From a virus (Duplodnaviria > Heunggongvirae > Uroviricota > Caudoviricetes): 10,919 nt of DNA. Below the pieces are notes generated by a model. The model had not been told where the DNA came from and did no database searches. It saw only the letters and a program-made list of their open reading frames with translations. The stretch lies in IMG/VR virus record IMGVR_UViG_2558860161_000005. One strand, 5' to 3'. Position 1 is the stretch's first letter; the number at the start of each line of letters is the position of its first letter. Of the stretch, positions 1 to 10,919 are shown piece after piece. Position numbers and translations under genes: made by a program.

Positions 1-154
1 CCGCCATGAACACCCCTAAAAAAAGGGCATTTATATATCCAAATATTAATATCAAAACATCAACTTTTTCCATATACCTTGCTGTGAAGATGATGGGCAT
101 ACATGATGCGAACAACCAGAACGCAACAAACAAAAACTGCAATGCGTTTTTCAT
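1..154 (-). CDS. 5'-partial gene: ATG at 154-152, 51 codons to the window edge and continuing beyond; predicted small hydrophobic membrane protein, identity unknown
   Basis: Revcomp of 1-154 reads MKNALQFLFVAFWLFASCMPIIFTARYMEKVDVLILIFGYINALFLGVFMA... with no stop before the window edge. Strong SD GGAGG 4 nt upstream of the ATG (plus-strand cctcc at 159-163). Not in the ORF track because it runs off the window. Confidence 0.4.
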   Translation of the reverse strand, partial: MKNALQFLFVAFWLFASCMPIIFTARYMEKVDVLILIFGYINALFLGVFMA

Positions 155-408
155 TATTCCTCCTACAATCAATGTGCAATTACATTTAAACACACCTCAA
201 TTTGGCCGGACATATAAATATCTAAACCAGAAAAAATCACTTACATAGCGTTACAAACTCTTTAGTCTAAAGGTTCATCGTAAAACATTCCCCATACTTA
301 TCAGTCCGTTCCGCGCCAGGTAGCTCATTGCCTTATCTGGCAACCTGTAATCAGGTTTCCGCTTTTTCAGTTGGCTGGTCGTTTAACCGACATAGTTAAC
401 CCATTAAT

Positions 409-696
409 CTAGTTGCCGGATGTTGGTGGATTTTCGCGTTTTAGTTGTTCATAAAAGTGCACAGCTTTAACCAATTCTTCTGATGTAACCGGGACTGGTG
501 AGGCAGTGAATAAGGCCTGAATTTGATAGTTCGGCCTGTCGTTACAATCCTCTTTTTTCGGTACATATTTCCAGTCACCAGACCACTACTTCCCCTGAAA
601 GTCCGTAACGCCTTTTTTCACGTAGCGATATCGCCATGTCACTGGTTTTGCTTGCCCCGCCGTTTCATGCCCTTCCTGATAATTAATCTCGCTCAT
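409..696 (-). pseudogene. Unassigned 95-codon reading frame interrupted by an in-frame TAG (plus 586-588); possible nonsense-mutated prophage gene
   Basis: Revcomp from ATG at 696-694: MSEINYQEGHETAGQAKPVTWRYRYVKKGVTDFQGK-TAG-WSGDWKYVPKKEDCNDRPNYQIQALFTASPVPVTSEELVKAVHFYEQLKRENPPTSGN, stop at 411-409. The frame stays open and protein-like across the TAG. I do not recognise the family. Confidence 0.25.
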
Positions 697-758: not shown

Positions 759-884
759 CTAGGATTCGACATCAGCAGCACTTCCACCGCGTAACTCACC
801 ATAGTCCATTAATAGTTCATCCCGCTCTTCAAAACTGATGTTATATTTAGCTGAACAAAAATCAGCCACTTTGTTCTTCCTCAT
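759..884 (-). CDS. Hypothetical 41-aa ORF (MRKNKVADFCSAKYNISFEERDELLMDYGELRGGSAADVES); may be a gene remnant
   Basis: ATG at 884-882, stop TAG at 761-759, weak SD. Below the ORF-track length threshold; found by manual translation. Confidence 0.15.
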   Translation of the reverse strand: MRKNKVADFCSAKYNISFEERDELLMDYGELRGGSAADVES

Positions 885-933
885 CGTCTTTTATTTCGTG
901 GTATGAGTAATTGCAGTAGTTAAAGAAAATTTC

Positions 934-1044
934 TTATGCTCCGTCATGAATTTCATCAGGTGTTGCGTCATCGTCCACTTCGAATACATCCTCAAAATCT
1001 CCACCAGCTATTCCCGTTTCAATAATAATTTTGAACTTTCGCAT
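934..1044 (-). CDS. Hypothetical 36-aa acidic ORF (MRKFKIIIETGIAGGDFEDVFEVDDDATPDEIHDGA)
   Basis: ATG at 1044-1042, stop TAA at 936-934. Upstream on the - strand: AGGAGG, then a perfect hairpin GCCGCCC-GAAA-GGGCGG (plus 1053-1070), then 7 nt to the ATG. Confidence 0.2.
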   Translation of the reverse strand: MRKFKIIIETGIAGGDFEDVFEVDDDATPDEIHDGA

Positions 1045-1535
1045 TTCACTACCGCCCTTTCGGGCGGCCTCCTGATGTTCTGAGGGTGCAGAAATCCATC
1101 CGGTTAAGGATTAAGTTTTATTTACAGAACTGAATTTAATTATTCAGATATACGTATCTGTAACCTTACGAATCTACTCACTGGATGCCTCTTTCATAAA
1201 AATAATCCAGTGGGTTTTATCGTTTTTTCCCTGTTCGTTGACAGATAACAGGCTTTCTATCTGTCAGTGCCAGAATCTGGCTTACCGGTATTTGCGTTTC
1301 ATTCCATTAAAAAATCAGAACGCCGTGCGGCCTCAACACCCGAAAAGCTTCTTTAAATCTCTGTCGCAAATCATCACGCCAGGCATCTTTATTCAGCCGT
1401 CCATATTTCTTTCCCATCCAGGCGTTATCACCAACACGCTCAAGATGCGGAGGGTCTAATACAACCATCGAAAAAGATGCGTCTGCAAATGATAATGCAC
1501 GAAAATCTGCGATAATGTCAGGGCTGATAATCAAG

Positions 1536-1544
1536 CGTCTCCCA
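1536..1544. repeat. Left copy of the 9-bp IS1 target-site duplication (cgtctccca)
   Basis: Identical 9-mer at 1536-1544 and 2313-2321, directly flanking the IS1 ends. Confidence 0.9.
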
Positions 1545-1599
1545 GGTGATGCTGCCAACTTACTGATTTAGTGTATGATGGTGTTTTTGAGGTGCTCCA

Positions 1600-1875
1600 G
1601 TGGCTTCTGTTTCTATCAGCTGTCCCTCCTGTTCAGCTACTGACGGGGTGGTGCGTAACGGCAAAAGCACCGCCGGACATCAGCGCTATCTCTGCTCTCA
1701 CTGCCGTAAAACATGGCAACTGCAGTTCACTTACACCGCTTCTCAACCCGGTACGCACCAGAAAATCATTGATATGGCCATGAATGGCGTTGGATGCCGG
1801 GCAACAGCCCGCATTATGGGCGTTGGCCTCAACACGATTTTACGTCACTTAAAAAACTCAGGCCGCAGTCGGTAA
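1600..1875 (+). CDS. insA: IS1 InsA (91 aa)
   Basis: Translation [43 protein letters not shown]... matches IS1 InsA as I recall it; zinc-finger CxxC motifs present. Confidence 0.9.
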
Positions 1876-2297
1876 CCTCGCGCATACAGCCGGGCAGTGA
1901 CGTCATCGTCTGCGCGGAAATGGACGAACAGTGGGGCTATGTCGGGGCTAAATCGCGCCAGCGCTGGCTGTTTTACGCGTATGACAGGCTCCGGAAGACG
2001 GTTGTTGCGCACGTATTCGGTGAACGCACTATGGCGACGCTGGGGCGTCTTATGAGCCTGCTGTCACCCTTTGACGTGGTGATATGGATGACGGATGGCT
2101 GGCCGCTGTATGAATCCCGCCTGAAGGGAAAGCTGCACGTAATCAGCAAGCGATATACGCAGCGAATTGAGCGGCATAACCTGAATCTGAGGCAGCACCT
2201 GGCACGGCTGGGACGGAAGTCGCTGTCGTTCTCAAAATCGGTGGAGCTGCATGACAAAGTCATCGGGCATTATCTGAACATAAAACACTATCAATAA
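1794..2297 (+). CDS. insB: IS1 InsB (167 aa; the transposase is made as an InsAB' fusion by -1 frameshift)
   Basis: ATG at 1794; translation [25 protein letters not shown]...HYQ matches IS1 InsB as I recall it; overlaps insA in the -1 frame downstream of the A6C motif. Confidence 0.9.
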
Positions 2298-2312
2298 GTT
2301 GGAGTCATTACC

Positions 2313-2321
2313 CGTCTCCCA
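2313..2321. repeat. Right copy of the 9-bp IS1 target-site duplication (cgtctccca)
   Basis: Identical to 1536-1544. Confidence 0.9.
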
Positions 2322-2436
2322 TTGCGTAATGTGTATCCTTCTTTTCTGATATCGCTGAATATCGCCCGTTTGTCAGACTTATCGAACCAGAACATGCGGC
2401 TGCCACAGCACATATCAAGAATGGTTGCCGGTGCAC

Positions 2437-2859
2437 TCACTGCGCCACGTCCTGAAAATTACCCTGATAGAAAGCCAGTATGCGCTGCATAACTTCGCTC
2501 TTCCGGCACTCGCGACAGATTATGTTTAGGCGACTGTCGTAGCGACGTATTTCTCCGTCAGGTGATGACCAGATAAGGTCCGGATCAACCACAGCAGGTT
2601 TCTTCACCTTTGCCCTCGAGAGTTTTTTGCGGGCGTTTTGCCAGTCCTTACGCGCCTGTTCAGAGGGGAATAACCCGTAGCCGGAGTTGTATACATCGCC
2701 ACTGGCTACCAGCTCTCTGGCAAGAACGCTCATCAGATATCTAGTCGCACCTGTTTTAGCTTCCAGTTGCCGTAACGTCTCACGGCCGCTCTGGCGCACG
2801 AGTTCCACCACCTGCCATTTAATTTTTTCCCGCTCTTCTTGTGTAAAAACTTTTGCCAC
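2437..2859 (-). CDS. Hypothetical 140-aa prophage early protein, basic, possible DNA-binding; function unknown
   Basis: ORF with GTG start at 2859-2857 preceded by GGGGG SD; translation MAKVFTQEEREKIKWQVVELVRQSGRETLRQLEAKTGATRYLMSVLARELV... It lies between the replication initiator and the methyltransferase, and its stop overlaps the alternative GTG start of the methyltransferase. Confidence 0.55.
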   Translation of the reverse strand: MAKVFTQEEREKIKWQVVELVRQSGRETLRQLEAKTGATRYLMSVLARELVASGDVYNSGYGLFPSEQARKDWQNARKKLSRAKVKKPAVVDPDLIWSSPDGEIRRYDSRLNIICRECRKSEVMQRILAFYQGNFQDVAQ

Positions 2860-2899: not shown

Positions 2900-3865
2900 T
2901 TATCCTCTGAAACCAGGCGGAATTTCTGTATCCGGTTCAGAAATATGATTAACACAACGCTGTACAGGTGAACGTCCCAGGCGGATGACCAGTTCGTCCC
3001 ATTTTTCGCGGAGCTTTGACGGGCTCATGATGTTTTTTACCCAGAATGGATCTCGCTGAACCCGACCAAACATTTCGCAAATTTGTCTGTGGCTTCTGCC
3101 ATCCAGCATCCGCATTGTGCGCACGTCATTGGCCCAGGCAGTCCAGTTAGGCTCTTTTGGTCGCATGATCTCGCCATCATCACTGGCTGCCTGTTCGTAG
3201 AGACCCACGATCCGCCCCCAGATCCACTGCGCACACGCCAAATCCTCCCTGCTACCCCACTGGCGTTTTTTCGCACTAAACACAACCGCGTCGGAGTTCC
3301 GGGTTAAAGAATCCTGTTCAGTCGTCTGCGGGTCCGGTTGCGAAGCTTCCGGACGAAAAGTGTTTTTATTCTCTGTAGTAATCTCTGTTGTATTCTCTGT
3401 AAGATCATCAGGCCATTTTGACCCGATGACATTGGGTCGTTTTGAACCAATGGAGCGTTTCATTTTGACCTCTTCCATCGTGTCATTTTGACCTGATGGA
3501 GCGGCGCATTTTGAACCGATGGATTCGCTCAATTTGCCACCATCTAAAAGCTCGCTCCCATAGTTGATCGTGTAGAAATTGGTCATATCGCGCTTTGATT
3601 TATTGAGCTTTTCACAACGCAAAAGCCCCAGCGTTTTCAGACTTGCAAACGCGCGCTTTAACGTTGACTCTGACCAGAATGGGAACTGTTCCAGCCATTG
3701 TTCCGTTGTGTTATAAATCCAGCGAACACCATCACATTCCATGCCGGAGTTGGTATCTCTCAACCAGTAGTGCAGTTGTTGCAAAACAATGGCTTCGTTT
3801 AAGCCAATTTTCATTGCCAGCTGCGTGTTTATAACCAGTGGGCGTTCAGCAAAAAGAAGGCTCAT
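2900..3865 (-). CDS. Phage replication initiator (lambda O-like role), about 322 aa from ATG 3865; contains the origin iterons
   Basis: Track ORF 2900..3919 begins at a TTG; the likely start is ATG 3865-3863 (MSLLFAERPLVINTQLAMKIGLNEAIVLQQLHYWL...), typical of a phage replication-initiator N-terminus. The central region is coded by iteron DNA (SIGSK repeats) and an AT-rich repeat (TENTTEITTEN). Family assignment is from memory. Confidence 0.7.
   Translation of the reverse strand: MSLLFAERPLVINTQLAMKIGLNEAIVLQQLHYWLRDTNSGMECDGVRWIYNTTEQWLEQFPFWSESTLKRAFASLKTLGLLRCEKLNKSKRDMTNFYTINYGSELLDGGKLSESIGSKCAAPSGQNDTMEEVKMKRSIGSKRPNVIGSKWPDDLTENTTEITTENKNTFRPEASQPDPQTTEQDSLTRNSDAVVFSAKKRQWGSREDLACAQWIWGRIVGLYEQAASDDGEIMRPKEPNWTAWANDVRTMRMLDGRSHRQICEMFGRVQRDPFWVKNIMSPSKLREKWDELVIRLGRSPVQRCVNHISEPDTEIPPGFRG
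3355..3541. other. Putative lambda-style replication origin: 5-6 iterons with a 23-24 bp period (3414-3541) plus an adjacent AT-rich tract with three attctctgt-like repeats (about 3355-3400), inside the initiator gene
   Basis: Direct repeats with core ttttga(a/c)c at 3416, 3440, 3463, 3486, 3509 and a degenerate copy near 3532, each followed by (c/t)gatgg-like sequence; ccatc/gatgg dyads flank the cores. The arrangement parallels ori-lambda within gene O. Confidence 0.6.
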
Positions 3866-4367
3866 AATTCCATCCAGCTTTTTGTTGGTATTGCTGTCGA
3901 TACGCAAGCTTGAAAGCAATTGCTTTTTCTATAAGTTCGTCAGTTTCACGATCCACTACGGCAGGATCAGCAAAAAGCAGTCCGGACTCCACCACATCGC
4001 CATATTCTTTGTTTAACCCGGCGATCATGCACGTGATGCTTTTTCCGTCAGTAATTTCACGATACAACCTGAAATCACTAATCCGGATAGCCTCCATAAT
4101 CGCAGGCACTAGCGCCGTGAACTTTTCACGCTTATCCCTGGTGTCGATAGCCTTCCAGCGTTCGAATATCTTCACTCGATTAACACCAAGCGCTCGCTGA
4201 TCAACCGCGCCACCTTCATCTGTGACACGCTGAACATCGATGTTCGGGCGCTCTTTCAAAGCCCAGAATGCTTCAGTGATTAATATCGTCGCCTGCTCCT
4301 GTGTCATTCCTGGTCGACATATCCAGGCATCCAGAGCCTCACGAACCTGTTCAGGAGTGATTTTCAT
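3846..4367 (-). CDS. 173-aa early-operon protein in the cII/YdaT position; possibly a YdaT-like regulator
   Basis: ATG at 4367-4365; translation MKITPEQVREALDAWICRPGMTQEQATILITEAFWALKERPN...; overlaps the dicC stop by 17 nt and the initiator start by 20 nt, suggesting translational coupling. Family assignment is tentative. Confidence 0.6.
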   Translation of the reverse strand: MKITPEQVREALDAWICRPGMTQEQATILITEAFWALKERPNIDVQRVTDEGGAVDQRALGVNRVKIFERWKAIDTRDKREKFTALVPAIMEAIRISDFRLYREITDGKSITCMIAGLNKEYGDVVESGLLFADPAVVDRETDELIEKAIAFKLAYRQQYQQKAGWNYEPSFC

Positions 4368-4581
4368 TGTTCAACCACCCCGCCCGCTTCGTCTTACGAT
4401 ATTCATCATAAACTTTGGGATCATACTGAAGCTCCCCGCCAGATGCCTCCTGTAGACGCATCGCGCGACCTTCGGGAACTAAATCCCCTTTCCAGCTATA
4501 AAGCGAAGCCAAACGAATACCTGCTGCTTGTGCAAGTTTTGTTTTTGAACCGAAATACAAAAGAGCGTCAGTTTTAAGCAT
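4351..4581 (-). CDS. dicC: DicC, Cro-like regulator of the Qin-type immunity region (76 aa)
   Basis: ATG at 4581-4579 with SD AGGTG 7 nt upstream; translation MLKTDALLYFGSKTKLAQAAGIRLASLYSWKGDLVPEGRAMRLQEASGGELQYDPKVYDEYRKTKRAGWLNNENHS; the 76-aa length and divergent arrangement with dicA match E. coli Qin dicC as I recall it. Confidence 0.85.
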   Translation of the reverse strand: MLKTDALLYFGSKTKLAQAAGIRLASLYSWKGDLVPEGRAMRLQEASGGELQYDPKVYDEYRKTKRAGWLNNENHS

Positions 4582-4595
4582 TTAAAACACCTTTA

Positions 4596-4662
4596 TTGTT
4601 AGTCATAACTAACAAGATAGATGTTAACAAAAACATAGTCAATACGATTTAGCATTAGCTAA
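4596..4662. promoter_or_regulatory. dicC-dicA divergent promoter/operator region with two palindromic putative DicA operators
   Basis: Perfect palindrome ttgttagt-cata-actaacaa at 4596-4615 and imperfect palindrome ttagc-atta-gctaa at 4649-4662, immediately upstream of the dicA ATG (4665). Confidence 0.55.
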
Positions 4663-4664
4663 CT

Positions 4665-5072
4665 ATGGAAACAAAAAATTTAACTATCGGCGAACGCATC
4701 AGGTATCGTCGGAAAAACCTCAAACACACCCAAAGGTCTCTTGCTAAAGCCCTGAAAATCTCCCATGTGTCTGTATCACAATGGGAACGGGGTGATAGTG
4801 AACCTACAGGGAAGAACCTTTTTGCCCTCAGCAAAGTATTGCAATGCTCACCAACATGGATTCTATTTGGCGATGAAGACAAGCAACCAACACCACCTGT
4901 TGAGAAGCCAGTTGCCTTATCCCCCAAAGAACTAGAGCTCCTTGAGCTGTTTAATGCACTGCCAGAATCAGAACAGGATACCCAGCTCGCCGAAATGCGA
5001 GCTCGAGTAAAAAACTTCAATAAACTCTTTGAAGAATTACTAAAAGCCCGTCAGCGGACAAATAAAAGATAA
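4665..5072 (+). CDS. dicA: DicA, HTH (XRE-family) repressor of the dicB operon (135 aa)
   Basis: ATG at 4665, stop TAA at 5070-5072; translation METKNLTIGERIRYRRKNLKHTQRSLAKALKISHVSVSQWERGDSEP... matches E. coli DicA as I recall it (135 aa). Confidence 0.9.
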   Translation: METKNLTIGERIRYRRKNLKHTQRSLAKALKISHVSVSQWERGDSEPTGKNLFALSKVLQCSPTWILFGDEDKQPTPPVEKPVALSPKELELLELFNALPESEQDTQLAEMRARVKNFNKLFEELLKARQRTNKR

Positions 5073-5238: not shown

Positions 5239-5394
5239 ATGGATACTATCGATCTTGGCAACAACGAATCTCTGGTGTACGGCGTGTTTCCAAACCAGGA
5301 CGGTACGTTCACCGCGATGACGTATACCAAAAGCAAAACGTTTAAAACCGAAAATGGTGCCCGTCGCTGGCTGGAAAGAAACTCAGGTGAGTGA
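5239..5394 (+). CDS. ydfA: YdfA (51 aa), dicB-operon small protein of unknown function
   Basis: ATG at 5239 with SD GAGG 7 nt upstream; translation MDTIDLGNNESLVYGVFPNQDGTFTAMTYTKSKTFKTENGARRWLERNSGE. The track ORF 5161..5394 is the same frame extended to an upstream alternative start. Confidence 0.8.
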   Translation: MDTIDLGNNESLVYGVFPNQDGTFTAMTYTKSKTFKTENGARRWLERNSGE

Positions 5395-5395
5395 T

Positions 5396-5524
5396 ATGGA
5401 TTTCGACACAATCATGGAAAAAGCTTACGAAGAATACTTCGAAGGTCTTGCCGACGGCGAAGAAGCTCTCAGCTTCAACGAATTTAAACAGGCGCTTTCC
5501 AGTTCGGCAAAATCTAACGGCTGA
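5396..5524 (+). CDS. ydfB: YdfB (42 aa), dicB-operon small acidic protein
   Basis: ATG at 5396, one base after the ydfA stop; translation MDFDTIMEKAYEEYFEGLADGEEALSFNEFKQALSSSAKSNG, stop TGA at 5522-5524. Below the track threshold; found manually. Confidence 0.7.
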   Translation: MDFDTIMEKAYEEYFEGLADGEEALSFNEFKQALSSSAKSNG

Positions 5525-5553
5525 TAAGCGAAACAGCACCGCGAGGAATCAGT

Positions 5554-5772
5554 ATGCAGAAACGAGAACCCGTCATCATCGCGCCAGACTATACCGATGA
5601 TGAACTTTATGAGTGGATGCGCCAGAAAATTAATGCAGCGCAGGATCTGAAATGGGCCAATGAAGCCAGGGCTAAGCAGGCTGAAAATCTGTCCGCTCTG
5701 GAGCAGGATATCACCAATCTGGAAAAAGCAGCGGCATTAAGCATTGCCAGAATGATTACATACCCGCGTTAA
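5554..5772 (+). CDS. ydfC: YdfC (72 aa), dicB-operon protein of unknown function
   Basis: ATG at 5554 with SD GAGG (5543-5546); translation MQKREPVIIAPDYTDDELYEWMRQKINAAQDLKWANEARAKQAENLSALEQDITNLEKAAALSIARMITYPR. Confidence 0.8.
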   Translation: MQKREPVIIAPDYTDDELYEWMRQKINAAQDLKWANEARAKQAENLSALEQDITNLEKAAALSIARMITYPR

Positions 5773-6112: not shown

Positions 6113-6170
6113 TTTCTGGTGACGTTTGGCGGTATCAGTTTTACTCCGTGACTGCTCTGCCGCCCTTTTT
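6113..6170 (+). ncRNA. dicF: DicF small RNA (53-nt core 6113-6165 plus U-tail), antisense inhibitor of ftsZ translation processed from the dicB-operon transcript
   Basis: Sequence tttctggtgacgtttggcggtatcagttttactccgtgactgctctgccgccc followed by ttttt matches DicF as I recall it; it lies between ydfC and dicB as in Qin. Exact ends are approximate. Confidence 0.8.
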
Positions 6171-6339: not shown

Positions 6340-6528
6340 ATGAAAACGTTATTACCAAACGTTAATACGTCTGAAGGTTGTTTTGAAATTGGTGTCACTA
6401 TCAGTAACCCAGTATTTACTGAAGATGCCATTAACAAGAGAAAACAAGAACGGGAGCTATTAAATAAAATATGCATTGTTTCAATGCTGGCTCGTTTACG
6501 TCTGATGCCAAAAGGATGTGCACAATGA
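6340..6528 (+). CDS. dicB: DicB (62 aa), MinC-dependent cell-division inhibitor
   Basis: ATG at 6340 with SD GAGG (6327-6330); translation MKTLLPNVNTSEGCFEIGVTISNPVFTEDAINKRKQERELLNKICIVSMLARLRLMPKGCAQ. The track ORF 6235..6528 carries a spurious N-terminal extension. Confidence 0.85.
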   Translation: MKTLLPNVNTSEGCFEIGVTISNPVFTEDAINKRKQERELLNKICIVSMLARLRLMPKGCAQ

Positions 6529-6716
6529 ATTCAGCATTTGTGCTTGTTCTGACAGTTTTTCTTGTTTCCGGAGAGCCAGTTGATATTGCAGTCAGTGTTC
6601 ACAGGACAATGCAGGAGTGTATGACTGCAGCAACCGAACAGAAAATTCCCGGTAACTGTTACCCGGTCGATAAAGTTATTCACCAGGATAATATCGAAAT
6701 CCCGGCAGGTCTTTAA
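6525..6716 (+). CDS. ydfD: YdfD (63 aa), small membrane protein reported to cause lysis when overexpressed
   Basis: ATG at 6525 overlaps the dicB stop (ATGA); SD AGGA 9 nt upstream; translation MNSAFVLVLTVFLVSGEPVDIAVSVHRTMQECMTAATEQKIPGNCYPVDKVIHQDNIEIPAGL with a hydrophobic N-terminus. Confidence 0.8.
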   Translation: MNSAFVLVLTVFLVSGEPVDIAVSVHRTMQECMTAATEQKIPGNCYPVDKVIHQDNIEIPAGL

Positions 6717-6808: not shown

Positions 6809-9280
6809 ATGAGTAAAGTCTTTATTTGCGCCGCTATTCCTGACGAACTGGCAACAAGGGAAGAAGGCGCTGTGGCTGTAGCCACAGCCATTGAAGCTGG
6901 CGACGAACGCCGTGCTCGAGCAAAATTTCACTGGCAATTCCTGGAACATTATCCGGCTGCTCAGGACTGCGCTTATAAATTTATTGTCTGCGAGGATAAA
7001 CCTGGCATACCCCGCCCTGCCCTCGATTCATGGGATGCTGAATATATGCAGGAAAACCGCTGGGATGAGGAGTCTGCTTCTTTTGTCCCGGTTGAGACTG
7101 AATCCGATCCGATGAACGTCACTTTTGACAAGCTGGCCCCTGAAGTACAGAACGCTGTCATGGTTAAGTTCGACACATGTGAAAACATCACCGTTGATAT
7201 GGTTATTAGCGCACAGGAATTGTTGCAGGAAGACATGGCAACATTCGACGGACATATCGTTGAAGCGTTGATGAAAATGCCAGAAGTTAACGCCATGTAT
7301 CCGGAGCTTAAGTTGCACGCCATTGGGTGGGTTAAGCATAAATGTATTCCTGGTGCTAAATGGCCCGAAATTCAGGCAGAGATGCGCATCTGGAAAAAAC
7401 GTCGCGAAGGTGAACGCAAGGAAACCGGAAAATACACGTCTGTTGTTGATCTCGCCCGCGCCAGAGCCAATCAACAGTACACTGAAAATTCAACAGGAAA
7501 AATCAGCCCGGTCATTGCTGCCATTCATCGCGAATACAAGCAGACATGGAAAACACTGGATGACGAACTGGCCTACGCTCTCTGGCCTGGTGATGTGGAT
7601 GCCGGAAACATTGACGGCAGCATCCATCGCCGGGCAAAAAATGAAGTTATCGACAACGACCGCGAAGACTGGAAGCGTATCTCGGCATCAATGCGCAAAC
7701 AGCCTGATGCCCTTCGCTACGACCGCCAAACTATTTTTGGCCTTGTCCGTGAGCGTCCGATCGACATTCACAAAGATCCCGTAGCACTGAACAAATATAT
7801 CTGCGAATACCTGACGACAAAGGGCGTGTTTGAGAATGAAGAAACAGACCTGGGCACTGTTGATGTTCTCCAGTCATCAGAAACACAAACTGATGCAGTG
7901 GAAACTGAGGTATCTGATATCCCAAAAAATGAAACCGCGCCGGAAGCTGAACCATCTGTAGAGCGTGAGGGGCCGTTCTATTTCCTCTTCGCAGATAAGG
8001 ACGGAGAAAAATACGGTCGCGCAAACAAACTTTCTGGTCTGGATAAGGCACTGGCTGCTGGCGCCACTGAAATCACAAAAGAAGAATATTTTGCCCGAAA
8101 AAATGGCACATACACGGGCTTACCGCAAAATGTAGATACCGCTGAAGATTCAGAACAACCAGAGCCGATAAAAGTTACCGCTGACGAAGTAAACAAAATT
8201 ATGCAGGCAGCCAATATCATCCAGCCTGACGCCGATAAGTTGCTTGCTGCATCACGTGGTGAATTTGTTGAAGGGATTAGTGACCCGAATGATCCGAAAT
8301 GGGTTAAGGGGATCCAGACCCGCGATTCTGTGAACCAGAACCAGCATGAATCGGAACGGAACTACCAAAAAGCGGAACAAAACAGCCCAAATGCGTTACA
8401 AAACGAGCCAGAAACGAAACAGCCTGAATCAGTGGCGCAACAGGAAGTGGAAAAAGTCTGCACCGCCTGCGGTCAGACCGGCGGCGGCAACTGCCCTGAT
8501 TGTGGCGCGGTAATGGGCGACGCAACATACCAGGAAACATTCGATGAAGAGTATCAGGTTGAAGTTCAGGAAGATGATCCGGAGGAAATGGAAGGCGCTG
8601 AACATCCACACAAGGAGAACACTGGCGGCAATCAGCATCACGATAGCGATAATGAAACTGGCGAGACGGCAGATCACTCAATTAAGGTGAACGGTCATCA
8701 AGAAATCACATCCACCAGCAGGACGTGTGACCATCTAATGATCGACCTTGAAACCATGGGAAAAAATCCTGATGCCCCGATCATCTCAATAGGTGCAATA
8801 TTTTTCGATCCGCAAACCGGAGATATGGGACCGGAATTTAGTAAGACTATCGATCTGGAAACTGCTGGCGGAGTCATTGATCGGGACACCATTAAATGGT
8901 GGCTTAAGCAATCACGCGAAGCGCAATCTGCCATTATGACCGATGAAATCCCGTTAGATGATGCACTGTTACAATTGCGGGAATTTATCGACGAAAACTC
9001 CGGTGAATTTTTTGTTCAGGTCTGGGGAAATGGAGCCAACTTCGACAACACGATTTTGCGCCGTTCATACGAACGGCAGGGGATCCCCTGCCCGTGGCGT
9101 TACTACAACGATCGCGATGTACGCACAATCGTTGAGCTGGGGAAAGCCATAGACTTCGATGCCAGAACGGCTATTCCATTCGAAGGTGAGCGCCATAATG
9201 CACTTGATGACGCCCGTTACCAGGCAAAATACGTTTCAGTTATCTGGCAAAAACTGATCCCGAGTCAGGCTGATTCTTAA
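6809..9280 (+). CDS. Full-length YdfE-like protein (about 823 aa): N-terminal domain of unknown function, acidic linker with a Cys4 zinc ribbon, C-terminal DnaQ-like DEDDh 3'-5' exonuclease domain
   Basis: Likely start ATG 6809 (SD GAGG 6797-6800); the track ORF begins at TTG 6773, and ATG 6794 is an alternative. Exonuclease motifs: D-L-E from 8744, WGNGANFD, HNALDDARY. Zinc ribbon CTACGQTGGGNCPDCG at about 8459-8506. The N-terminus MSKVFICAAIPDELATREEG... is what I recall for the K-12 ydfE pseudogene product, which is truncated there. Confidence 0.8.
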   Translation: MSKVFICAAIPDELATREEGAVAVATAIEAGDERRARAKFHWQFLEHYPAAQDCAYKFIVCEDKPGIPRPALDSWDAEYMQENRWDEESASFVPVETESDPMNVTFDKLAPEVQNAVMVKFDTCENITVDMVISAQELLQEDMATFDGHIVEALMKMPEVNAMYPELKLHAIGWVKHKCIPGAKWPEIQAEMRIWKKRREGERKETGKYTSVVDLARARANQQYTENSTGKISPVIAAIHREYKQTWKTLDDELAYALWPGDVDAGNIDGSIHRRAKNEVIDNDREDWKRISASMRKQPDALRYDRQTIFGLVRERPIDIHKDPVALNKYICEYLTTKGVFENEETDLGTVDVLQSSETQTDAVETEVSDIPKNETAPEAEPSVEREGPFYFLFADKDGEKYGRANKLSGLDKALAAGATEITKEEYFARKNGTYTGLPQNVDTAEDSEQPEPIKVTADEVNKIMQAANIIQPDADKLLAASRGEFVEGISDPNDPKWVKGIQTRDSVNQNQHESERNYQKAEQNSPNALQNEPETKQPESVAQQEVEKVCTACGQTGGGNCPDCGAVMGDATYQETFDEEYQVEVQEDDPEEMEGAEHPHKENTGGNQHHDSDNETGETADHSIKVNGHQEITSTSRTCDHLMIDLETMGKNPDAPIISIGAIFFDPQTGDMGPEFSKTIDLETAGGVIDRDTIKWWLKQSREAQSAIMTDEIPLDDALLQLREFIDENSGEFFVQVWGNGANFDNTILRRSYERQGIPCPWRYYNDRDVRTIVELGKAIDFDARTAIPFEGERHNALDDARYQAKYVSVIWQKLIPSQADS

Positions 9281-9352: not shown

Positions 9353-9604
9353 ATGAGCGAAGTAATCATGATTGTCTCTCCCGGCAAATGGGTATCCGAA
9401 GAGCAGTTAATTGCGCTGAAAGGAATAAAAAAAGGTACGTTAAAAAAGGCCCGGGAAAAATCGTTTATGGAAGGAAGGGAATATAAGCATGTCGCTCATG
9501 ACGGTATGCCATGGGATAACAGTCCATGCTTTTACAACCTGGAAGAAATTGATCGCTGGATTGAGCGCCAGGCATCAGCAAGACCAAGACGTCATCTTAC
9601 TTGA
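9353..9604 (+). CDS. Excisionase-like small DNA-binding protein (83 aa), immediately upstream of int
   Basis: ORF MSEVIMIVSPGKWVSEEQLIALKGIKKGTLKKAREKSFMEGREYKHVAHDGMPWDNSPCFYNLEEIDRWIERQASARPRRHLT; basic; position and size typical of a lambdoid xis; an alternative start is ATG 9368. Confidence 0.65.
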   Translation: MSEVIMIVSPGKWVSEEQLIALKGIKKGTLKKAREKSFMEGREYKHVAHDGMPWDNSPCFYNLEEIDRWIERQASARPRRHLT

Positions 9605-9623: not shown

Positions 9624-10919
9624 ATGAGAGAAGTTGAAATGAAATATCCGACAGGCGTGGAAAACCATGGAGGGAAATTACGTATCTGGTTTGTTTATAA
9701 AGGCGTAAGAGTCAGGGAAAACCTGGGGGTTCCTGACACAGCAAAAAACAGGCGCGTTGCAGGTGAGCTACGCGCCTCTGTTTGTTACGCAATAAAAACT
9801 GGTGTTTTCGACTATGCAAAACAGTTTCCCTCCTCACGCAATCTGGAAAAATTTGGTGAGACTCGACAAGATTTAACCATAAAAGAACTGGCTGAAAAAT
9901 TTCTGGCACTGAAAGAAACTGAAGTCGCAAAAACATCACTCAACACATACCGTGCCGTCATCAAAAATATCCTGAGCATAATCGGTGAAAAAAATCTTGC
10001 CTCATCGATTAATAAAGAAAAATTACTGGAGGTTCGTAAAGAGCTACTGACTGGATACCAGATCCCCAAAAGTAACTATATTGTTACACAACCAGGGAGA
10101 TCGGCTGTAACTGTAAATAATTACATGACAAATCTTAACGCCGTGTTCCAGTTTGGTGTTGATAACGGTTACCTGGCAGATAACCCGTTTAAGGGGATCT
10201 CGCCATTAAAGGAATCAAGAACCATTCCGGATCCTCTTTCGCGGGAGGAATTCATCCGTCTTATCGATGCGTGCAGAAATCAGCAAGCCAAAAATTTATG
10301 GTGTGTTTCTGTTTATACTGGCGTTCGCCCTGGTGAGCTGTGTGCACTTGGATGGGAGGACATAGATCTGAAAAATGGAACAATGATGATCAGGAGAAAT
10401 TTAGCAAAAGACCGTTTCACGGTACCAAAAACACAGGCGGGAACCAATCGGGTCATTCATCTTATTAAGCCAGCAATCGACGCTCTCCGGAGTCAGATGA
10501 CATTAACGAGACTGAGCAAAGAGCATATCATTGATGTTCACCTCAGAGAGTATGGCAGAACAGAAAAACATAAATGCACCTTTGTTTTTCAACCTGAAGT
10601 GTCAGCGAGAGTAAAAAATTATGGTGACCATTTTACCGTTGACTCAATAAGGCAGATGTGGGACGCAGCGATAAAACGTGCCGGACTCCGCCATCGAAAA
10701 TCATATCAGTCGAGACATACTTATGCCTGCTGGTCGCTGACAGCTGGTGCTAATCCGGCATTTATAGCAAACCAGATGGGCCATGCAGATGCGCAAATGG
10801 TATTTCAGGTATACGGAAAATGGATGTCTGAAAACAATAATGCACAGGTAGCTTTGTTAAATACACAGTTAAGCGAGTTTGCCCCAACCATGCCCCATAA
10901 CGAAGCAATGAAAAATTAA
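9624..10919 (+). CDS. Phage tyrosine integrase (lambda-Int family); probable counterpart of Qin intQ, here apparently intact
   Basis: 431-aa ORF from ATG 9624 (the second ATG at 9639 has the better SD). N-terminal arm-type DNA-binding-like region; C-terminal catalytic region with SRHTYACW (His-x-x-Arg) and a C-terminal Tyr in GHADAQMVFQVYGKW. The stop TAA is the last three bases of the window. Confidence 0.85.
   Translation: MREVEMKYPTGVENHGGKLRIWFVYKGVRVRENLGVPDTAKNRRVAGELRASVCYAIKTGVFDYAKQFPSSRNLEKFGETRQDLTIKELAEKFLALKETEVAKTSLNTYRAVIKNILSIIGEKNLASSINKEKLLEVRKELLTGYQIPKSNYIVTQPGRSAVTVNNYMTNLNAVFQFGVDNGYLADNPFKGISPLKESRTIPDPLSREEFIRLIDACRNQQAKNLWCVSVYTGVRPGELCALGWEDIDLKNGTMMIRRNLAKDRFTVPKTQAGTNRVIHLIKPAIDALRSQMTLTRLSKEHIIDVHLREYGRTEKHKCTFVFQPEVSARVKNYGDHFTVDSIRQMWDAAIKRAGLRHRKSYQSRHTYACWSLTAGANPAFIANQMGHADAQMVFQVYGKWMSENNNAQVALLNTQLSEFAPTMPHNEAMKN

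Follow-up and report, generated by a model that had tools for sequence, protein, structure and literature searches.

Two old point lesions and an IS1A insertion in a probable methyltransferase pseudogene of a Qin-type cryptic prophage

The window analyzed here, i.e., the whole 10,919-nt stretch of DNA, contains on its minus strand a small gene that the initial annotation described as a phage DNA methyltransferase gene split by IS1 and carrying, in addition, an in-frame TAA codon. The question raised by this locus is whether the gene is a decayed remnant and, if so, which lesions it carries and in what order they arose, or whether one of its shorter frames still encodes a protein in its own right. 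Very probably, the locus represents a 162-codon class I SAM-dependent methyltransferase gene of a Qin-type prophage that acquired two point lesions and, afterwards, a copy of IS1A; judging from their sequences, the truncated products are likely to be non-functional.

The IS1A insertion and the interrupted frame

The locus comprises the following features, listed from the 5′ end of the gene (i.e., from right to left in the window):

2322-2440, minus strand: 5′ part of the methyltransferase pseudogene (codons 1 to 43, together with the right duplication copy)
2422-2399, minus strand: SAM-binding motif I, ILDMCCGS (codons 7 to 14)
2313-2321: target-site duplication, right copy, CGTCTCCCA (exact 9-mer abutting IS1A)
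1545-2312, plus strand: IS1A (100% identity to annotated IS1A elements)
1545-1567 and 2290-2312: terminal inverted repeats of IS1A (end sequences read directly)
1600-1875, plus strand: insA (ORF listing)
1794-2297, plus strand: ORF of the insB′ frame (ORF listing)
1600-2297, plus strand: InsAB′ transposase frame, which maps to the joined CDS annotated by PGAP with "programmed frameshift" in another strain (L002)
1851-1857, plus strand: A6C programmed -1 frameshift site of IS1A, within TAAAAAACT at 1850-1858
1536-1544: target-site duplication, left copy, CGTCTCCCA (exact 9-mer abutting IS1A)
1174-1535, minus strand: 3′ part of the same pseudogene, which resumes at codon 44 beyond the left duplication copy
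1456-1445, minus strand: DPPH motif IV (codons 70 to 73)
1307-1309, minus strand: TAA, nonsense codon at the position of K119 in homologues (homologue alignments)
1223-1228, minus strand: A6 run with a 1-nt insertion, T6 on the plus strand (DNA alignment)
1219-1217, minus strand: TAA stop created by the frameshift (three-frame translation)
1176-1174, minus strand: TAG, ancestral stop (three-frame translation and DNA alignment)

The segment 1545-2312 is an intact 768-bp IS1A, 100% identical over 768 bp to annotated IS1A copies; copies identical to it are found on thousands of enterobacterial plasmids, annotated as "IS1-like element IS1A family transposase." Its ends are imperfect inverted repeats of ~23 bp, GGTGATGCTGCCAACTTACTGAT and, reverse-complemented, GGTAATGACTCCAACTTATTGAT. 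Duplication of 9 bp of the target is a typical signature of IS1. The 9-mer CGTCTCCCA occurs in two copies only when both strands of the whole window are scanned, and the empty sites of E. coli A38, CFSAN064036, and other strains have it only once; the exact recurrence of a given 9-mer at the other end has a chance of 4^-9, or ~4e-6. In length and identity, inverted repeats, the insA/insB′ -1 frameshift, and the flanking duplication, the element is a member of the IS1 family, and the initial reading of these two 9-mers as the mark of a true IS1 transposition is borne out.

In silico removal of 1545-2321 yields one continuous minus-strand ORF that starts from a GTG at 2440, so that the frame does run uninterrupted across the insertion site, as had been proposed. 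The joined frame reads VSAPATILDMCCGS...VVLDPPH...GVLIF, a stop, WNETQIPVSQILALTDRKPVICQRTGKKR (which begins with WNETQ and ends with QRTGKKR), and a second stop. The GTG start codon (2440-2438) overlaps the stop codon of the upstream DUF977 gene as GTGA, and PGAP puts the CDS start at the same GTG in L003 and L004. IS1A sits within codons 40 to 43, and the 5′ fragment now present (ORF 2291-2440) consists of 43 native residues followed by VMTPTY and a stop contributed by the IS1 end. Both motif I and DPPH are kept as in the homologues in the protein alignment.

The nonsense codon and the shifted A-run

The TAA at 1309-1307 is a real nonsense codon. In the protein alignment, the lysine at this position (K119) is invariant in all 57 intact homologues, as are F118, W120, E122, T123, and Q124. 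The DNA alignment covers six diverged homologues, of which four are intact; codon 119 reads AAA in five of the six (the intact E. coli allele L010, the Stx2c phage L009, the Klebsiella prophages L008 and L005, and the Cronobacter phage JK004 [L007]) and AAG in the sixth, the Salmonella phage Oslo (L006); the genes of L005 and Oslo are broken elsewhere. Five AAA codons and one AAG indicate that the change was a single transversion, AAA to TAA. This is the change that the initial annotation had suggested, and the reading IFKWN that it gave for related methyltransferases agrees with the homologue alignment.

A 357-nt CDS that ends at this TAA has been annotated both by PGAP and by the depositors of phage PhiR42_1, which might mean that a 118-aa protein naturally ends at the TAA and that the frame beyond it is open by chance or belongs to a separate small gene. 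However, the intact homologues all read through this point, the invariant Lys being followed by an invariant or nearly invariant W-N-E-T-Q; the 29 codons over which the frame was noted to stay open past the TAA are 80 to 100% identical to those of intact homologues; and the profile match of the restored protein reaches residue 161. Among the best 120 clusters, 118 are at least 156 aa long and none ends at position 118; the two shortened ones are P0023 (133 aa), called on the frameshifted allele with M16 as its start, and P0018 (155 aa), which has a different frameshift at the same A-run. A natural stop after codon 118 is refuted by this comparison and has hardly any probability left.

The initial count of two hits, IS1 and TAA, was correct as to both lesions but missed a third one, a +1 insertion in an A-run. 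In the DNA alignment, the window has GGGAAAAAACG where the homologues have GG(G/C/A)AAGAACG (GGGAAGAACG or GGCAAGAACG), i.e., one extra A; in the homologues, the run is interrupted (GGGAAGAAC or GGCAAGAAC). The insertion shifts the frame after QRTGK, past codon 146. Intact homologues continue after QRTGK with (N/S/G/A)DKTHWIIF(V/M)K and end ~15 codons on; the frame-corrected tail of the window, NDKTHWIIFMKEASSE followed by a stop, lies in the +1 frame and matches this ending. The extra A means that the stop at 1219-1217 is a product of the frameshift and not the ancestral end of the gene, which comprised 162 codons and ended at the TAG at 1176-1174. The gene span in the initial annotation was thus right in its locus and wrong in its 3′ end at 1217, the remnant extending from 2440 down to 1174. 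There is no uninterrupted frame of ~160 codons: IS1 lies in codons 40 to 43, TAA is at codon 119, and the +1 shift follows codon 146. In E. coli CFSAN064036 and A38, PGAP independently lists a pseudogene, [quoted passage not shown] whose span maps to 1174..2395 of the window. The locus is best annotated as a single IS1-interrupted pseudogene, 1174-2440, with three lesions; the label of a 118-aa "class I SAM-dependent methyltransferase," used in many RefSeq records, is inapt here.

Stop and A-run together could, in principle, be a recoding signal, with programmed readthrough plus ribosomal or transcriptional slippage producing low levels of full-length enzyme from the uninterrupted allele. An A6 homopolymer is a slippage-prone sequence, the P0018 allele is shifted the opposite way at the same run, and the TAA allele is widespread (~9% of complete E. 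coli genomes). However, neither signal is conserved beyond one nearly identical allele lineage, and the diverged homologues all have a sense codon, an unshifted frame, and an interrupted run. Elsewhere in the family, genes are broken at sites unrelated to these two, by a TGG-to-TGA change in the Klebsiella prophage phi5.1 (L005) and by a 1-nt deletion in phage Oslo, as random decay would produce. The window allele has lost five invariant residues (see below), and the IS1 copy makes the recoding question moot for the window. The stop in the window, a TAA with a T after it, is in the context that terminates translation most efficiently in E. coli. Programmed recoding is rejected, the stop and the shift being absent from the diverged homologues, and must be regarded as extremely improbable.

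Prophage setting and order of events

The window represents the early/replication region of a Qin-type cryptic lambdoid prophage, as it carries dicC-dicA, ydfABC, DicF, dicB-ydfD, and an integrase gene next to rspB. Its genes, with coordinates mapped from the PGAP annotation of the near-identical A38 locus and DicF taken from Rfam, are as follows:

~275-696: pseudogene of a hypothetical gene, with a frameshift and a stop, downstream of the methyltransferase (PGAP)
862-1044: DUF7167 pseudogene with an internal stop, downstream of the methyltransferase (PGAP)
2437-2859: DUF977 gene, upstream of the methyltransferase pseudogene
2900-3865: O-like replication gene
3846-4367: ydaT-like gene
4351-4581: dicC
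4665-5072: dicA
5239-5772: ydfA, ydfB, and ydfC
6114-6165: DicF RNA (RF00039, 76.7 bits)
6340-6528: dicB
6525-6716: ydfD
6809-9280: exonuclease
9353-9604: excisionase
9639-10919: integrase

In A38, rspB and rspA come next after the integrase. The description of the locus as part of a decaying prophage is well supported by the Qin-type gene content and by the two other pseudogenes that directly follow the methyltransferase remnant. A truncated ISEsa1 transposase gene is found further downstream in related strains.

A search of other strains found the uninterrupted locus, e.g., in E. coli A38, which provides an isogenic empty site: compared with the window without 1545-2321, it has 2 differences in 10,142 bp, at window positions 178 and 4345, and it shares with the window both the TAA and the A6 run. 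At least 40 complete E. coli genomes contain the joined 574-nt sequence at 100% identity, with TAA and A6. The exact 61-mer centered on the TAA is found in ~473 of the 5,426 complete E. coli genomes, including those of strains W and ATCC 8739; its AAA version has no full-length exact match in these genomes, the best matches being TAA carriers at 98.4%. The exact A6 61-mer is found in 89 complete E. coli genomes and its A5 version gives no full-length exact match in them, with the proviso that such counts do not separate A6 from A5 in sub-alleles with nearby SNPs. Phage PhiR42_1 (L004), a more diverged sub-allele, has both TAA and A6. Since both point lesions are common to many genomes, including that of the IS1-less A38, they predate the IS1 insertion; they are old and have become fixed in this lineage of alleles. 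The IS1 junction of the window is absent from the 5,426 complete E. coli genomes in a megablast search with 1150-2500, which detected IS1 in this region in two E. coli strains, at other sites; the exact left junction (a 40-mer) has no match in GTDB species representatives or JGI metagenome contigs. Among the collections searched, the IS1 insertion is recent and private to the lineage of the sequenced strain.

The absence of the exact junction from all three collections could also be a sign of an artefact, given that IS1 is a multicopy repeat open to misplacement by assemblers and that homopolymer runs, such as the one with the extra A, are prone to sequencing errors. A mis-join, however, would not yield two perfect copies of a 9-bp sequence that the empty site contains only once, and the TAA and A6 are identical in many independently sequenced complete genomes, which makes an assembly or sequencing origin of the insertion or of the point lesions barely credible.

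The stepwise decay of this gene would have begun with two point lesions in an ancestor, the AAA-to-TAA change at Lys119 and a 1-nt expansion of the A-run after codon 146. Much later, and only in the lineage of the sequenced strain, an active IS1A would have transposed into codons 40 to 43; the staggered 9-bp cut at the target would then have been repaired into the CGTCTCCCA duplication. This insertion would have had no functional cost because the gene was already dead and lay in a block of dead genes. All this amounts to routine decay of a cryptic E. coli prophage, with a pseudogene that is already flagged in RefSeq, and involves no new biology. Still, the private IS1 junction can be used as a strain marker, and the nested lesions, an old nonsense codon and frameshift followed by a recent IS1, make a textbook example of stepwise prophage decay. 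A literature search on the Qin methyltransferase, phage PhiR42_1, and comparable IS1 cases returned nothing specific. Nothing was found to contradict the stepwise explanation.

Constraint, truncated product, and enzyme family

If the gene has long been inactive, its allele might be expected to show relaxed selection, as the initial annotation proposed, and a signal in the expected direction is present, albeit a modest one in terms of dN/dS. The window allele is altered at five more sites that are invariant in the 57 homologues (C39R, D40N, P58S, F69L, and G102R), of which F69L affects the residue directly before DPPH. A three-taxon split of pairwise Nei-Gojobori counts assigns ~16 non-synonymous changes to the window branch, compared with 4.5 to 5.5 on the two intact E. 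coli-type branches. Pairwise dN/dS is 0.10 to 0.12 between the window allele and the intact alleles versus 0.067 between the intact alleles, a measure too insensitive to reveal strong relaxation; in comparisons with the Klebsiella and Cronobacter homologues, dS is saturated. Such low pairwise values imply that most of the divergence of the window allele accrued under purifying selection.

In an AlphaFold model of the intact E. coli homologue P0001 (pLDDT 66, i.e., moderate, and better in the C-terminal half), strand β5 spans residues 110 to 119; next come a helix and two strands, at 138 to 143 and 150 to 156. According to this model, the TAA is predicted to remove the last two core strands, the terminal β-hairpin of the class I fold; through the frameshift alone, the last strand would be lost. 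These predictions bear on the possibility that the 118-aa N-terminal stub, which keeps motif I and DPPH, has a function of its own, so that IS1 would be the real knock-out. The stub allele is common and called as a CDS in many genomes (e.g., WP_001310834.1), and the pairwise dN/dS values are still low. However, hitch-hiking accounts for its frequency, as the cryptic prophage that carries it is widespread and vertically inherited; the last two core strands of the modeled intact homologue are missing from the stub, which is also substituted at the five invariant sites, including the one before DPPH; and in other strains, this region has been disrupted or deleted by independent IS1 events. A separate function of the stub is therefore very unlikely, and its listing by PGAP as an ordinary CDS reflects how PGAP annotates and does not speak for a function.

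The assignment of the restored, frame-corrected protein to a methyltransferase family relies on its match to PHROG 954, "DNA methyltransferase," over residues 5 to 161 with an E value of 9.2e-82, so that the joined frame does have the similarity, here a full-length one, that was initially claimed for it. The family is large (7,030 homologues at an E value of ≤1e-10, typically of 157 to 167 aa). The Pfam Methyltransf_11 profile gives weak support (21.7 bits against a cut-off of 21.2), and the N6_N4_Mtase profile scores 14.9 bits, below its gathering cut-off of 26.7; sequence searches of NCBIfam and PDB gave no significant match, the best PDB entry being 2zie with an E value of 0.12. Foldseek comparison of the P0001 model (pLDDT 66) with PDB returned generic class I matches at a TM score of ~0.4, led by the tRNA m2G enzyme Trm11, with M.TaqI and TTHA0409 lower. 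A motif I followed ~60 residues on by DPPH is the mark of class I methyltransferases that target exocyclic amino groups, the (D/N/S)PP(Y/F/H) enzymes. By analogy, the intact enzyme would be expected to methylate an exocyclic amino group of a nucleic-acid base. As regards the "DNA methyltransferase" of the initial annotation, the methyltransferase part stands; DNA as the putative substrate comes from database naming (the PHROG description and the annotations of depositors) and from the DPPH motif.

It has some appeal, but is unlikely, that this methyltransferase family is recurrently selected against in lysogens, or that the 118-aa stub retains a residual role. If the former were true, methylation could expose host or prophage DNA to methylation-dependent restriction, and this would explain why the gene was knocked out independently in the E. 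coli Qin lineage (TAA, A-run shift, and IS1 hits), in the Klebsiella prophage phi5.1 (TGA), and in Salmonella phage Oslo (frameshift).

The restored gene can be compared with the intact members of PHROG 954, such as QBP07693.1 (160 aa) from Klebsiella phage ST846-OXA48phi9.2, the E. coli cluster P0001 (162 aa), and the "putative methylase" of Pectobacterium phage ZF40. The 120 best-scoring clusters show 72 to 89% protein identity along the whole length. The order of motifs is the same, namely ILDMCCGS, DPPH, FKWNETQ (with K119 being a stop in the window), and DKTHWIIF, and the gene is located downstream of the DUF977 gene in L010, L011, and L005, just as in the window. The intact members are uninterrupted, whereas the window copy has the nonsense codon, the frameshift, IS1, and the five substitutions at invariant sites. 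N6-adenine and N4-cytosine DNA methyltransferases and m2G RNA methyltransferases (Trm11) similarly have a Rossmann-type fold with motif I followed by DPPH; unlike them, the protein in question is only ~160 aa long and has no recognizable target-recognition domain. The closest counterparts are the PGAP pseudogenes AOY91_RS11525 of A38 and C6668_RS04505 of CFSAN064036, which have the same sequence, including TAA and A6, at loci that lack IS1. As for the inserted element, its size, sequence, repeats, frames, and duplication are all those of known IS1A, with no difference found; among the collections searched, the insertion site alone is new.

Point lesions of the methyltransferase gene and the A-run

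A near-identical allele of the methyltransferase gene, found on an ENA metagenome contig (L012:398-799; protein cluster P0023), carries GAA (Glu) at the position of the TAA codon of the window, where intact homologues have AAA, and retains the A6 frameshift. The GAA codon could be a secondary TAA-to-GAA change or the product of an independent AAA-to-GAA change. Given this combination of GAA with A6, either of the two point lesions, TAA or A6, could be the earlier one.

The frame is also shifted at the same A-run, in the opposite direction, in the E. coli-type allele represented by cluster P0018 (155 aa; 82 member sequences from Logan assemblies), which has the C-terminal end ...QRTGKTIKPTGLFL. 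Because the two shifts are opposite, the A-run looks, from the sequences compared, like a recurrent slippage hotspot; alternatively, the shift in P0018 may reflect a recurrent sequencing error.

Broken and longer homologues and their annotation

Methyltransferase homologues in two other phages have been broken independently, at positions other than those affected in the window:

L005:989-1471, Klebsiella phage ST16-OXA48phi5.1: TGG-to-TGA change within ENAWMGKKY; annotated as two CDSs
L006:1004-1480, Salmonella phage vB_SosS_Oslo: 1-nt deletion in an A-run after RLNK

For vB_SosS_Oslo, a sequencing error at the homopolymer may account for the deletion.

A substantial share of the family (P0008, P0014, P0016, and other clusters) consists of proteins of ∼248 to 255 aa, compared to ∼160 aa; the additional ∼90 residues point to a further domain or to a fusion. 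The NCBI annotation pipeline PGAP treats identical sequences differently between RefSeq genomes (hits H106 to H116; L003:4495-4851): in some genomes, the 118-aa stub that ends at the TAA codon is listed as a normal CDS under the name “class I SAM-dependent methyltransferase” (WP_001310834.1, for example), whereas in others the whole methyltransferase locus, with the same sequence, is marked as a pseudogene.

Other IS1 copies and the prophage context

The prophage segment is a repeated target of IS1, as two further E. coli strains carry this element in the same segment at sites that differ from that in the window:

L002:2501-3494, strain 17MR471: adjoins window position 1321; a deletion has removed the sequence left of IS1
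L003:2412-3269, strain SCPM-O-B-12142: at about window positions 81-95

Directly downstream of the methyltransferase gene are two more pseudogenes, as called by PGAP at the near-identical locus of E. coli strain A38; the list also includes a small RNA:

275-696, minus strand: pseudogene of a hypothetical gene, both frameshifted and interrupted by an internal stop
862-1044, minus strand: DUF7167 pseudogene with an internal stop
6114-6165, plus strand: DicF antisense sRNA, upstream of dicB (RF00039, 76.7 bits)

The dicC-dicA immunity region of the window is identical in A38 and aligns with that of PhiR42_1 up to window position 4940, where the fetched PhiR42_1 locus (L004) ends. Window positions 4489-4991 do not align with the corresponding region of strain CFSAN064036 (L001:8564-9060), a mismatch that reflects the common mosaic swapping of immunity modules. 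The location of DicF upstream of dicB is as expected of a Qin-type prophage.
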